Source: Acidobacteriota bacterium (lineage in GTDB: Bacteria > Acidobacteriota > UBA890 > WLXD01). From it: a stretch of 64,000 nucleotides of DNA. The stretch spans positions 864,001 through 928,000 of the forward strand of contig CAXWPL010000004.1 in assembly GCA_963666215.2 (NCBI GenBank), given 5' to 3'. The notes beneath the pieces are model-generated. The model worked only from the letters and a program-made list of their open reading frames with translations, had not been told where the DNA came from and did no database searches. Made by a program: the position numbers and the translations under genes. Numbering within the stretch: position 1 is the stretch's first letter; the number at the start of each line of letters is the position of its first letter. Below are positions 35,204 to 40,882 of the stretch, in pieces.

Positions 35204-35228
35204 CGTTGGGCGCGATGCCGACGGTGTT

Positions 35229-35693
35229 TTGAAGGCCGGACAGCTTGAGCTGCCGGATTCGTACCGCTACGGCGTGCTGTTGAGTGCGGATTTCTGGGAG
35301 TTCCTGCAGGAGACACGAAACCAGCTCGTGGTGCCACTGGAGCTCCTCAGGCTCTTCGTGGATCGTCCGACTGGCTGGGACTACCTGTGCTTCCTCGTGG
35401 CTCGCTGTGGGGCTGCCAGGCGGGCGTCGAAGGTGCCGCACGAGGCGTTGGTGTCACTCTTCAGGGACACAGAGAAGCAGAGCGATCGAAACATCATCCG
35501 ACGACTCAAGCGCTACCACGCTGAGATCATGGTGGCCACGGGAGGAAGACTCCGCGCTGAGCTCGTCGAGGATGGCCACTTCCCTGCTGCGGGGCGCGGA
35601 AGGCCGCGCAAACGTTGGGCGCTTGTCGTGCGACCGAGCAAGTCGGTGATTGTTGCCGGTAAGGTGATCGATCTTGAGGTGCCGGCAGAGTAG
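35229..35693 (+). pseudogene. repA: C-terminal half of a plasmid replication protein (RepA_C/IncW-like)
   Basis: Begins exactly at the left TTGAA with no RBS; VLLSADFWEFL..VVPLELLR..WDYLCFL; in frame with the right-end half on circularisation. Confidence 0.7.
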
Positions 35694-35792
35694 GAAGGCC
35701 ACACTTCCCTTACTACTAACGGCAACTTGCCGGATTTTCCGATAACTTGCTCGTCGTTCCGTCGAAAAAAGCCGAGTAGAGAACGTCCTATG

Positions 35793-35830
35793 GGTATAAG
35801 AGTCTACGGAAACTCTTAGACTCTTATACC
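35793..35830. repeat. Palindromic box R1 (8-mer array)
   Basis: GGTATAAGAGTCTA-cggaaactct-TAGACTCTTATACC, perfect 14-bp arms. Confidence 0.9.
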
Positions 35831-36018
35831 AAAAGAGCTGTTGGGTTGAGCTCTTCGCCGGCAGCGGACCGCGTTTATGTGCCGCAAAAACGCGCCTAGA
35901 GGGCGCTCAGAGAACGCGACCCTGAAGGATGTGGTTTTCCTTGTTCTTAGGGCTACGGGCTCTTCTCGAGGCTCTTAGGAGCTCTGCGGGCATGCCTGGT
36001 TCGGAACACTCCCCTACC

Positions 36019-36795
36019 TCACGCTGCTTTGGCGAGCCTTTCGGTGGCGTACTGCTTCATCCGATACGTGAAGACTCGCGCGGGATGCTTTGCCCCATCG
36101 GCTTTGATCTCGGAGAGCGCCTGGAAGATGACGTTGTGCGGCACCTTCGACGCGACCAGATAATAGAACTTGTTTGACTTGTGATCGCCGAACTCAGCGA
36201 GGATGTCGTCGGTCATGAGTTTGGTGGCAGCTTCTTCTTCGTCGAGATCCGGGAGCGCCTTAAGGGGGTTTTTGCTTTTACCGTTGGGTTGGTAGCTAAC
36301 GGTATTAGTTTCTCTATTCACTTCTCTATTACTACTACCCTTCTCAGGGGTGGTCTGATCACGGACGCCTTGTTGAGCGTCGGTTGCGGGAGCCGAGAAG
36401 CGACTCTCGAGGTAGAACCACTCCTTGCGGCGAGAGCCGTCCTGCTGCTCGCTGATGTCAACCCACTCGCCGAGCACGAAGATGGTCTCGCGGCCGGTTC
36501 GAAGGCGCTTGATCACCCGAAGCTCCTCAAGAGCTTTCAGGTAGTCGGTCACTCGATTGACCGTCTTGATGCCTAGAGTCGCGGCCAACCGTTGTCGGCC
36601 AACAGCTGCAACGAGTTTGCGTTCCTGGTGGTAGAAATCCTGCAGCTGGAGACGGTGGGGGCCACCACGCCAAACGAACCTTCGGAGTGCCAGATACACG
36701 GCAAACTCGGGACGACGGAGGAACTCCTGAAAATCAGGGTCGTCGAGGAGCGCGAAGTCGAGCATCAGGAATTGTCGATTGAAGTTCTCCGTCAT
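36019..36795 (-). CDS. Winged-HTH protein, possible second replication initiator
   Basis: FAVYLAL...RQRLAATLGIKTVNRVTDYLKALEELRVI HTH, low-complexity linker and small helical C-domain; lies next to the par genes. Confidence 0.6.
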   Translation of the reverse strand: MTENFNRQFLMLDFALLDDPDFQEFLRRPEFAVYLALRRFVWRGGPHRLQLQDFYHQERKLVAAVGRQRLAATLGIKTVNRVTDYLKALEELRVIKRLRTGRETIFVLGEWVDISEQQDGSRRKEWFYLESRFSAPATDAQQGVRDQTTPEKGSSNREVNRETNTVSYQPNGKSKNPLKALPDLDEEEAATKLMTDDILAEFGDHKSNKFYYLVASKVPHNVIFQALSEIKADGAKHPARVFTYRMKQYATERLAKAA

Positions 36796-36867
36796 AGGAA
36801 CACCCGCAGTATGGGGCGTAATCGCAGGTTTGGCGAGGTTCGGGGTGTGGATAGCAACCGGCCTACA

Positions 36868-36904
36868 GGTATAAGAGTCTACGGAAACTCTCGGACTCTT
36901 ATCC
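36868..36904. repeat. Palindromic box R2
   Basis: GGTATAAGAGTCTACGGAAACTCTCGGACTCTTATCC. Confidence 0.88.
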
Positions 36905-37162
36905 GAGCTTTCTGTTGGTATATTTGCTCAGGAGCTCAACGGCGACATCGCGCATTGAGCGGCCTTCTTGAGCCGCCATGACCTTGAGGGCGGCGTGCAA
37001 GTCAGCGGGCAAATCGAAGGTTGCTCGCACCCTACCCGGTGCGGGCTTTTTGCTGCGCGAGGAGGCCGGTGCCTTGTCTGGCGCCGTGGTAGCGGCCTTC
37101 CCTACAAAGGCTGCTTCGTCGAATCCCTTGCGGGCTTTCTTGGTCTTGCGTGGTGATTTCAT
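36899..37162 (-). CDS. ParG/omega-like ribbon-helix-helix centromere-binding protein
   Basis: Flexible N-terminus plus [37 protein letters not shown]-coupled to parA. Confidence 0.8.
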
Positions 37163-38534: not shown

Positions 38535-38758
38535 GAGCGTCGGAGACGTTCAACACTCGCCGTAAACTCGTCGTGGGAAAGACAGTCCTCGGGGCGCTCA
38601 CGTACCTGCTTCATACGCTCGTCAAGGAGCTGCTTCTGTGCATCGCTTAGCTCAAACGAGGGTGGGGGAGACGCACTCTCCCACAAGGCGTGTGCGAGCT
38701 CGAGGCGCTCGTCGACAGGCAGTTTGAGCACTGCTTCTTGTAGGTCTGCTTTTGTCAT
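38531..38758 (-). CDS. Addiction-module antitoxin (TIGR02574-type)
   Basis: LKLPVDERLELAHALWES...LSDAQKQLLDER; overlaps the toxin start. Confidence 0.85.
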   Translation of the reverse strand: MTKADLQEAVLKLPVDERLELAHALWESASPPPSFELSDAQKQLLDERMKQVRERPEDCLSHDEFTASVERLRRS

Positions 38759-38797
38759 GTCTCTACAGTGTACGGGAAATCACGAGGTTGGCAATCG

Positions 38798-38942
38798 GAT
38801 AAGAGTCTACGGAAACTCTTAGACTCTTATACCAAGTACAGACAGCCTACTGTGACGAAATCCATTTCGGCATGGTGATCATGATTGCCGAAATACGCAG
38901 ATAAGAGGATAAGGAGACTCTTATATACTATAATACTCTTAG
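38798..38942. repeat. Palindromic box R5 (38798-38833) and degenerate box R6 (about 38900-38942)
   Basis: GATAAGAGTCTACGGAAACTCTTAGACTCTTATACC, then ataagagg ataaggag actcttat...actcttag. Confidence 0.85.
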
Positions 38943-38950
38943 TACCAAAA

Positions 38951-40130
38951 CGGGGATGTCACAGGCTCCGTTGAAAAAGGGTGACGGTGATCCGACCTCG
39001 ATAGTGTGTCGGGGTCAATCCACTGGCATGGAGGATCACCGTCATGAGCAAGAGTCGCAGAACAGAGACAAGTAGGAAAGCGGAGCGCCAAGAGAACCCG
39101 CTCCTGGAGGCAGTGGTAGCGGCGCGATCGGATCTACGAGCGCTGGTCATGGACGCGGGCTTCGGGGTGTTGGGTTCGCTGCTGGAAGAAGACCGGGCGG
39201 AGCTCTGCGGAGAGCGCTACGCGCGGTCACAGCAGCGGCGGGCGTACCGACACGGCTACGACGAGGGCTCGCTGGTGATGGGCGGCCGGCGGGTCAAGGT
39301 ACGCAAGCCGCGGGCTCGGAGCGTCGATGGCCAAGAGCTGCCGCTGCTGGTGATCGACGGCACGCACATGGGCAAGCACTTGTTGGTGATCGCCATGGGC
39401 ATCGACGCGGACGGCGTCAAGCATGTGCTGGGTGTCGTAGAGGGCACCACGGAGAGCTCCCACGTGTGCCGGTCGCTGCTGCGGCAGTTGATCGAGCGCG
39501 GCATGCCCGTCGAACGGGCGCGGTTGGTGGTAATCGATGGCTCCAAGGGCCTCCGTAAAGCAGTGCGCGACACGTTCGGCGAGTGGGCCCTGATCCAGCG
39601 CTGCCGTGTCCACAAGATCAAGAATGTATTGGAGCATCTGCCAGGGCATATCCGGCCCTGGTTCGCAGCCAAGATCCGCAAGGCGTGGAAGGCGGAGACG
39701 GCCACGGCAGCGACCAAGCAGCTCGACGCCGTGGTCAAGGAGCTGGAGACCGATCACCCCGGTGCAGCGGCCTCGCTCAGAGAAGGAATGCAAGAGACGC
39801 TCACCGTCACTCGGCTCCGAGTTCAGGGGCCGCTGCTTCGGACGTTACGTTCAACGAATACGATCGAGAACCTGAACGGGACGATCAAACACGTCAGCCG
39901 CAACGTAAAGCGGTGGCGCTCCGGGAGCATGATCGTTCGATGGGCGGTTACTGCACTCATCGAGGCCGAGAGCAAGTTCCGGAGGGTTCGTGGCTACCGC
40001 GACATCGCCAAGCTCGATGCCGCACTCAACACCGCCGTCGACGTTCCCCTTGAGCAGGAGCGCCGTACTGCGTAACAATCCCCAACCACTTCACCGTCGC
40101 CTTAGTTCAACGGACGGTGGGACATCCCCG
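38951..40130 (+). mobile_element. IS256-family element, internally deleted
   Basis: 25-bp imperfect TIRs CGGGGATGTCacaggcTCCGTTGAA / CGGGGATGTCccaccgTCCGTTGAA; no 8-9 bp target duplication. Confidence 0.85.
39044..40075 (+). pseudogene. IS256 (mutator-like) transposase with an apparent in-frame internal deletion
   Basis: IDG, VIDGSKGL, QRCRVHK and STNTIEN motifs; PRARSVDGQELPL runs directly into LVIDG, skipping the usual intervening region. Confidence 0.75.
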
Positions 40131-40320
40131 CGAAGCCTACTACTGCTAGATAACTACTGTTCTTTAGATACTGAAGATACTGTTCTCCGCTGGCGCCCTT
40201 TGAGCTCAACGGGTTGGCGGGAATTACGGGGCCTGATTCACGTACGCAGGGGTATTTTCGGGGCCTGATTCACGTGGAAAACGTGAGCGTCCACAAGGGC
40301 CTGTGGAAAGGTGCTAGCCT
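40131..40320. other. Putative plasmid replication origin
   Basis: AT-rich TACTG-repeat tract at 40138-40196; exact 17-bp iteron-like repeats CGGGGCCTGATTCACGT at 40227 and 40259; immediately upstream of the rep ATG. Confidence 0.65.
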
Positions 40321-40338
40321 GCCGTGCGGGGGTGAGGC

Positions 40339-40855
40339 ATGAGCGACTCGACGGATCGCATACTGCGGCGGATCTCGAAGCTCGCGGGCTTCGCGGAGCG
40401 GCTTGAGGAGGAGCGACGCATCGAGGTTATCCGCCTCGCGCGCGTGCTCGCGATCGCGGGGCTGCCGAAGCGGCAGGTGGACGCGAGCCATCTGAGCCGG
40501 ACGCTGCGTGTCGGAGCAGCGACGTGGCTTCGGGTCACATACTCGGTCGACGAAGGAGCTCCCCTACCCTACGGCGCTGATCGCTTTGTGCTCGCCGGTA
40601 TCCAACACCTGGCGCTCGAGCAAGATTCGCGGACGGTGCTGTTCAACCGGGTTGGCGAGCTGCTACACACGTTTGGCTTGAGCCAGGACGGACGCTCGGA
40701 CTCCTGCGGCAGCGATTCAAGCGGATCGCGGGGCTGTCGATCAGGCTGCGGTTTGGTGGGTCGCTGGCTGAGCTCGATGATGCCGACGTCGGTGAGCAGC
40801 TCTTCATCATCCGGCGGTACTCCCTGCCGACAGGTCGAGAGCTTCGGCTCTTGAA
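40339..40855 (+). pseudogene. repA: N-terminal half of the plasmid replication protein (RepA_C/IncW-like), with a frameshift near 40697
   Basis: GLPKR, LPYGADRFVL and SRTVLF..ELLHTFGL; continues in the -1 frame as LLRQRFKRIAGLSIRL...RELRL up to TTGAA. Confidence 0.75.
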
Positions 40856-40882
40856 CACCGTCGGCCATGGCACTACCGCTCG

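Follow-up and report, generated by a model that had tools for sequence, protein, structure and literature searches.

A small plasmid opened within its replication gene at the apex of a reconstructed chromosomal palindrome in an Acidobacteriota genome

How does a plasmid that carries no integrase come to lie, with no base lost, in the loop of a chromosomal hairpin? The question is raised by an insert of ~5.6 kb in the genome of an Acidobacteriota bacterium (GTDB lineage UBA890, WLXD01; assembly GCA_963666215.2), located in a stretch of 64,000 nucleotides from contig CAXWPL010000004.1 (positions 864,001 to 928,000 of the forward strand), hereafter the window. Positions are those of the window unless they are given with a contig (C1, C4 and C5 are contigs of this genome). 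A first-pass annotation, made from the letters alone, had described an integrated plasmid and a structure-directed insertion into a terminator or a cruciform resembling a repetitive extragenic palindrome (REP), and had named three possible agents, i.e., a hairpin-recognising HUH enzyme acting in trans, a host recombinase, or repair of a cruciform break. Our analysis supports the plasmid, the chromosomal origin of the palindrome arms and a placement at the apex beyond chance, and it supports neither the REP family nor the HUH enzyme. We regard the insert, with slightly more confidence than doubt, as the product of a single illegitimate crossover at a 5-bp microhomology, between sites prone to hairpin formation on both partners and without a dedicated recombinase.

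Junction anatomy and the split rep gene

The insert lies between convergent genes of the VKOR and PAP2 families, as had been proposed and as Pfam matches and strands agree. At each end stands a copy of the word TTGAA, followed outward by one arm of a palindrome, and the replication initiator gene (rep) is divided between the two ends. The features at the junctions are as follows:

34766..35203, + strand: VKOR-family gene, left chromosomal neighbour (Pfam PF07884, 4.3e-16)
35217..35228: left arm of the chromosomal palindrome (GCCGACGGTGTT), reverse complement of 40854-40865
35229..35233: left copy of the 5-bp crossover word TTGAA; its TTG is codon 181 of the Rep profile
35229..35693, + strand: C-terminal half of rep (replication initiator), profile positions 182-324 (3.1e-76)
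35232-35660: match to Rep profile 182-324
40339..40850, + strand: N-terminal half of rep, interrupted by a 4-bp deletion near 40685, so that profile positions 11-128 and 124-180 fall in different frames
40345-40698: match to Rep profile 11-128
40680-40850: match to Rep profile 124-180
40851..40855: right copy of the 5-bp crossover word TTGAA, read from the sequence
40854..40865: right arm of the chromosomal palindrome (AACACCGTCGGC), which overlaps the TTGAA copy by two bases
40883..41770, - strand: PAP2-family gene, right chromosomal neighbour (Pfam PF14378, PAP2_3, 5.3e-17)

The insert is a small plasmid in circularly permuted form, opened within its own rep gene, as shown by the rep halves at its two ends, which are colinear with homologues when they are joined through one TTGAA. 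The left-end half has 35 full-length homologues (283–390 aa, 53–73% identity), and matches to the Rep profile occur at this locus only in the genome, as three colinear pieces that abut both TTGAA copies, with the TTG of the repeated word at profile position 181. Joined in this way, the gene follows three intact homologues codon for codon, with no gap and no loss. The rep frame breaks without these five bases, and TTGAA was therefore plasmid sequence, which excludes its origin as a transposase-type duplication of target DNA that was chromosomal only. The palindrome arms, in turn, are chromosomal and not part of the plasmid, since they would interrupt rep. Where the plasmid gene has TTG AAG, the three intact homologues read GAG CAC or GAG CAG, so TTGAA is not a conserved rep site. 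Both the junctions and the rep colinearity show an exchange within TTGAA that was reciprocal and lost no bases.

On the chromosomal side, the left arm GCCGACGGTGTT at 35217-35228 runs directly into the left TTGAA at 35229-35233, and the right TTGAA at 40851-40855 runs directly into CACCGTCGGC at 40856-40865. Excising 35234-40855 in silico makes GCCGACGGTGTT, TTGAA and CACCGTCGGC contiguous as a perfect palindrome of 27 bp; with its single TTGAA, the rebuilt site reads GCCGACGGTGTT/TTG/AACACCGTCGGC, a perfect 12-bp stem with a 3-nt loop in which TTGAA forms the loop and two bases of the right arm. These readings bear out what the first-pass annotation had said of the stem, of the loop and of the place of TTGAA within them. 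The rebuilt hairpin has a computed free energy of -20.9 kcal/mol as RNA and -14.8 kcal/mol as DNA, and the reconstructed VKOR-PAP2 spacer, which measures 57 bp from stop to stop without the insert, has this hairpin as the core of its minimum-energy fold. The contiguity of the arms before the insertion is deduced from this reconstruction and was not seen directly. We favour a chromosome that also carried TTGAA before the insertion, because the last two bases of the word lengthen the stem from 10 to 12 bp and because the route would then be simpler. With or without a chromosomal TTGAA, the break lies at the palindrome apex.

The plasmid partner is also structure-prone at the crossover. The weak stem TTCGGCT/GGCCGGA that had been noted around its TTGAA is present, but the energy-minimal fold is a different one, a pair of 8-bp hairpins of which the first has TTGAA at its 3' foot. 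Of 186 windows across rep, the 50-mer with the junction at its centre ranks 10th in stability (z = -3.3 against shuffles). Identity between the two partner sites is limited to TTGAA, i.e., 5 bp, or six of seven positions when one further base is counted.

Apex placement and strain comparison

A perfect inverted repeat of at least 12 bp (loop of at most 10) spans 1 of 20,000 random genome positions, and one of at least 10 bp spans 6 of 20,000. The genome holds 46 distinct perfect hairpins with a stem of at least 12 bp and a loop of 3–8 nt, the apices of which, taken as the loop and two bases on each side, occupy 8.8e-5 of the genome. Perfect hairpins on contig C4 outnumber those of a block-shuffled control, with 10 versus 0 at stems of at least 12 bp and 37 versus 8 at stems of at least 10 bp. 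As a further control, the rebuilt empty sites of insertion sequence (IS) copies show stems of only 2–6 bp (n = 10, these being the copies, among 30 of full length, for which the script found a target duplication). The insertion is non-randomly placed at a palindrome apex, and both partners are structure-prone at the point of exchange.

The palindrome itself is unique in the genome. A search for further copies of the 27-mer, which the REP-like label had called for, returned none, and membership of a REP or bacterial interspersed mosaic element family was rejected, as the arm pair has no other match in the genome at spacings of 0–12 nt. The arm 12-mer alone has seven exact genome matches including the two flanks, with ~1.1 expected, and the other five are unpaired. 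Nor does the terminator label hold up well: downstream of the stem come CATGGC (+ strand) and ATCGCG (- strand), with no flanking A/T tracts, whereas several other perfect hairpins of the genome do carry A...T flanks. The hairpin thus lacks the T tract of an intrinsic terminator, and such a role is unproven, although termination without a T tract is possible.

Four sequencing runs (X1, X2, X12 and X15) allow a comparison of strains. Runs X12, X15 and X2 have independent contigs that span the left junction, as X12 and X1 have for the right, and the X1 and X2 sequences carry scattered substitutions relative to the window, in flanks and insert alike. The insert junctions are real and older than the divergence of these strains. 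No joint of a circular form was found in the contigs of the four runs, which drop rare variants, so that a missing joint is not evidence of absence, and X15 has no cover at the right junction. In run X2, a seawater metagenome, one contig fits the left flank up to 35228 and then continues for at least 255 letters unlike the window. The start of this divergent tail is absent from the source genome and from viral contigs; the tail may represent other DNA inserted at this apex in a second strain, or it may belong to an unrelated organism.

Gene content and decay of the insert

The split gene encodes an initiator with the fold of the iteron type and not an HUH nuclease or a recombinase, as indicated by the structure model of a homologue (predicted local distance difference test score 86.7) and its Foldseek matches to RctB domains 2-3 (7.5e-8), RepE54 (7.6e-4) and Pi (2e-2). 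Sequence-level matches to Rep were absent from Pfam, NCBIfam and a PDB sequence-profile search, and an initial assignment of the protein to Pfam RepA_C was not confirmed. The homologue model and Foldseek give the initiator tandem winged-helix domains, and the insert combines repeated candidate binding sites with partition and stability genes (ParA, and ParE with its antitoxin), both of which are expected of an iteron-type replicon.

Relatives of Rep occur on contigs of 5–43 kb and on two chromosomes, in metagenome-assembled genomes labelled Vicinamibacterales, Thermoanaerobaculia and others, and none occurs in the viral contig collection. One of these relatives, L110, lies on a chromosome contig of a Vicinamibacterales metagenome-assembled genome, where positions 6001-6663 hold a truncated Rep-family copy of residues 110-329 only; a 43-kb contig of the L110 chromosome also carries a full-length Rep of 95% identity (L106). 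These copies make L110 look like a further, independent case of a chromosome having captured a plasmid of this kind, and its Rep break shows no obvious hairpin. Two further relatives, L111 and L112, are identical Rep copies 18,740 bp apart on one 29.5-kb contig, which fits a circular replicon of ~18.7 kb that was assembled more than once around.

The features between the two rep halves are the following:

35793-35829: palindromic repeat of ~30 bp (TAAGAGTCTA...TAGACTCTTA), the first of its six copies, from the repeat search (families D1-D3 and I2-I11)
36869-36904, 37826-37858, 38189-38223, 38798-38833 and 38900-38925: the other copies of the ~30-bp repeat
36019..36795, - strand: 258-aa winged-helix protein resembling a replication organiser (PHROG 186, DnaD-like helicase loader, 2.4e-4)
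37159..37806, - strand: ParA-type partition ATPase (Pfam AAA_31 5.8e-22, CbiA 1.9e-20)
37847..38152, - strand: ArsR/SmtB-type helix-turn-helix regulator (Pfam HTH_20 3.8e-10; NCBIfam NF033788 6.8e-12, under its cut-off)
38241-38534, - strand: ParE-type toxin (Pfam ParE_toxin 5.1e-9)
38531-38758, - strand: antitoxin (Pfam Unstab_antitox 5.1e-12)
38952..40129, + strand: IS256-family insertion sequence (Transposase_mut 3.6e-37; NF033543 2.2e-56)

Without its IS copy the plasmid would measure ~4.4 kb. Its G+C content is 0.50–0.59 across 35.6–39.2 kb of the window, compared with 0.61–0.69 outside. The six ~30-bp palindromic repeats are intergenic and stand ahead of most plasmid genes; they look like shared iterons or operators. 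The 258-aa winged-helix protein has no match in Pfam or NCBIfam, and its neighbours in the Atlas are the Phage_rep_O, RepA_N and HTH_36 clusters (scores 0.93–0.97). The reading frames of both toxin and antitoxin are open. Among the open reading frames of the insert there is no recombinase, relaxase or HUH gene (recombinases were sought in Pfam, NCBIfam, PHROG and the Atlas). PLSDB returned no plasmid relative beyond short ParA matches (six records, each at most 2% of the query), and the genome contains no second copy of the plasmid backbone.

A palindrome related to the ~30-bp plasmid repeats, with a 15-bp stem, occurs elsewhere in the genome at C5:1264017-1264052. The genome also has a second region that resembles a mobile element (C5:1264000-1288200 and C4:4000-7500); besides a ParA-like DNA match, it contains genes for a resolvase (C5:1277122), an integrase (C5:1287659) and an SbcD-like protein. 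A palindrome with a 13-bp stem is duplicated between C4:7434 and C5:1278209.

The insert has decayed in two places. The IS256-family copy lacks ~220–230 bp that other copies have between its two matching pieces, and a reading of its ends revealed no target duplication; these ends lie at least 715 bp from either insert junction, and the only transposase of the insert belongs to this IS. The 4-bp deletion near 40685 shifts the rep frame, and in the variant strain of run X1 a GAAC behind 40685 restores both the frame and the colinearity with homologues. Since X1 has an integrated copy with rep still in frame, rep was in frame at integration and the deletion came later. The decay after integration would comprise the 4-bp deletion in rep and the internal deletion in the IS copy. 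The frameshift (40686-40697) falls in a short run of GACG-like repeats of which X1 has one extra 4-base unit, and the pattern of these repeats suggests that the bases were probably lost by replication slippage. The IS256-family element, of ~1.41 kb, is highly expanded in the genome, with 30 full-length copies at 93–100% identity. An 8–9-bp target duplication is retained in only 10 of the 30, and several copies share flanks, a distribution that suggests recombination between copies.

Routes of integration and known systems

In the reading that we favour, a small circular plasmid would have recombined once with the chromosome inside a TTGAA common to both, which on the chromosome would have stood at the AT-rich apex of a unique palindrome and on the plasmid in rep, among the most structure-prone stretches of that gene. 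The palindrome would form a hairpin that stalls or breaks the DNA, and the free end would then use the 5-bp microhomology, either by a template switch onto the plasmid and back or by joining to a broken plasmid. Palindromes have been described as hotspots of breaks and rearrangements, with SbcCD cutting the tip off a cruciform (PMC4245961, PMC4787754), and template switching at microhomology has been reported (PMC2621351). The genome has five matches to an SbcD-like nuclease, all under the family cut-off. A cut rep would end the plasmid's own replication and so make the integrated copy tolerable, and the intact toxin-antitoxin pair may favour keeping the insert; we infer that only integrations that silence replication are tolerated, hence the crossover in rep, and that the toxin-antitoxin pair aids persistence. 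Among the three agents that had been named at the outset, repair fits best, after a break or a stall at the hairpin, with a molecular route that we infer.

Several observations weigh against an illegitimate crossover at the hairpin. The palindromes known to be cleaved in Escherichia coli are much longer than 27 bp, and conservative recombinases and topoisomerases would also leave a loss-free reciprocal exchange at one 5-bp word. We have one event, picked by a scan of many windows, for which some look-elsewhere discount is due. Ku has no match in the genome, which counts against the reading in part, as it argues against classical end joining and not against other routes. The searches yielded no unoccupied site: the insert is present in all four sequencing runs, with no joint across 35229-40850 in their contigs, subject to the loss of rare variants described above; the 27-mer palindrome has no match in the metagenome contigs, and these contigs contain no close relative of PAP2 (best identity 34%, among the best 80 of 347 relatives). 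The source genome is the sole member of its genus among the 41 genomes searched, its GTDB relatives belong to other genera, and VKOR protein identity to these is 51–60%. VKOR adjoins PAP2 in convergent orientation at all 11 loci of nine same-family genomes; in six of the nine there is neither spacer nor hairpin, the two stop codons abutting or overlapping, and the other three have spacers of ~11, 29 and 85 nt (read by eye). The palindrome is therefore lineage-specific, and its earlier state is a reconstruction. The first-pass annotation had proposed to look for the intact hairpin in sister genomes and had counted its absence from relatives as a refutation; the nearest genomes do lack it, but as members of other genera they are too distant to bear on the claim either way.

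The conservative, reciprocal exchange could instead be the work of a tyrosine or serine recombinase, from the host or a co-resident element, that acted in trans on the palindrome as a core site and on a stretch within rep as a pseudo-site. One can view the chromosomal site as perfect inverted arms of 10 bp that flank TTTTGAA, which is identical at six of seven positions to TCTTGAA of the plasmid, and the genome has 16 Phage_integrase and 3 Resolvase matches. However, neither PF00589 nor PF00239 has a match within the insert or anywhere in the 64 kb of the window; on C4 the tyrosine recombinases closest to the site (899 kb) lie at 701 kb and 1,063 kb, and the resolvases lie on C5 and C1. Plasmid flanks and chromosomal arms agree at only 2 of 10 and 3 of 10 positions (by eye), the site has no second copy in the genome, and the plasmid site falls within a gene that is essential, without being conserved among homologues. 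On C4 the cumulative GC skew switches at ~770–790 kb, ~120 kb from the insertion site, and the site does not resemble the dif consensus. The host recombinase suggested earlier is thus possible but unlikely, and no positive evidence speaks for it. A type II topoisomerase (gyrase) at both sites, exchanging subunits after staggered cleavage and rejoining within TTGAA, would likewise give a loss-free reciprocal exchange with no need of long homology. Gyrase is reported to bind REP palindromes, which also occur at lambda bio recombination junctions (PMC1525189), and interface swapping has been linked to illegitimate recombination (PMC11164529). The sequence offers no feature peculiar to gyrase, the 5-bp identity is not accounted for by a 4-bp stagger alone, and the palindrome is not a REP; we give this route little probability.

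Pure coincidence, i.e., a random illegitimate integration that survived because it landed in a spacer that happened to hold a palindrome, gains some weight from the choice of a single event by a reader who scanned very many windows. Intergenic DNA is also enriched in hairpins, with 30 of the 46 perfect hairpins outside genes, an in-gene/outside split that is rough because the GC3-based gene calls (G+C at third codon positions) cover only 75–82% of each contig. Such a coincidence is nevertheless quite improbable, given that a stem of at least 12 bp spans so few random positions (1 of 20,000), that the insertion is at the apex itself and not merely near a hairpin, and that the plasmid partner falls independently within the most structured 5% of rep. 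A hairpin-recognising HUH (Y1) enzyme acting in trans, with single-strand cutting and joining at the hairpin, would account for a hairpin at the target on both partners, and TTGAA resembles the pentanucleotide targets of some IS200/IS605 elements. Yet insertions of the IS200/IS605 type leave no duplication and move the element's own hairpin ends, and the plasmid Rep has an iteron-initiator fold. No Y1_Tnp (PF01797) match was found in the genome, which is 91.7% complete, so that absence is not proven, and in a control search 6 of 14 reference genomes did contain the family. We consider this agent very improbable. The perfect 12-bp inverted repeats that bracket the insert might also be terminal inverted repeats of the element itself, with TTGAA as a transposase target duplication, for which 5 bp is a common size. 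Against this, the 5-bp repeat sits inside the arms and the bases outside them (GCGAT and CATGG) are not repeated, rep needs TTGAA for its frame while intact homologues have no such arms in rep, and the only transposase is that of the internal IS, far from both junctions. Arms that travel with the element had been named as a refutation of the insertion account; rep colinearity contradicts them, and we find this explanation scarcely credible.

A broader proposal would be that short extragenic palindromes are preferred capture points for integrase-less plasmids, through a host structure-specific activity that would cut or exchange strands at the hairpin loops of both partners. If true, it would describe a general and unrecognised route by which plasmids become chromosomal genes, and the locus, structured at the crossover on either partner, would be its first clean natural footprint; we hold this decidedly improbable. 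A single event proves no mechanism, and the value of the locus is that of a well-defined case. It is an unusually clean record of an integrase-less plasmid entering a chromosome, with both junctions intact, nothing lost and rep cut, and it supports the view of small secondary-structure sites as fragile points for the capture of foreign DNA. It also suggests a pattern of survivorship, in which the integrations that persist kill plasmid replication and keep the addiction module.

The locus adds a clean natural case to a known kind of event; it is not a new system. Integrative elements that use the host XerCD at dif are also replicons without an integrase of their own, inserted at a palindromic chromosomal site. 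The present site differs from theirs in its distance of ~120 kb from the GC-skew switch, the plasmid has no matching arms, and the crossover destroys rep. Insertion sequences that target REPs or other palindromes (IS1397, ISKpn1, IS621 and ISPpu9) likewise place foreign DNA inside an extragenic palindrome (PMC1525189, PMC12288879). Theirs are repeated targets with many insertions and an element-encoded transposase, in contrast to a unique palindrome, a single event and a plasmid with no transposase at its ends. Illegitimate recombination attributed to REPs and gyrase, as at lambda bio and in F'128 amplification, also has junctions at extragenic palindromes with no site-specific system (PMC1525189), but the palindrome described here belongs to no REP family and carries no pointer to gyrase. 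With palindrome-associated illegitimate recombination, through SbcCD or template switching, the locus shares a breakpoint at the apex of a perfect palindrome, an identity of only 5 bp, an insert without a recombinase and a single, apparently non-recurrent event. The palindromes studied there are hundreds of bp long (460 bp in PMC4245961), compared with 27 bp here, and their outcomes are mostly deletions, inverted duplications and translocations, whereas the outcome at this locus is the clean, reciprocal capture of a whole plasmid.

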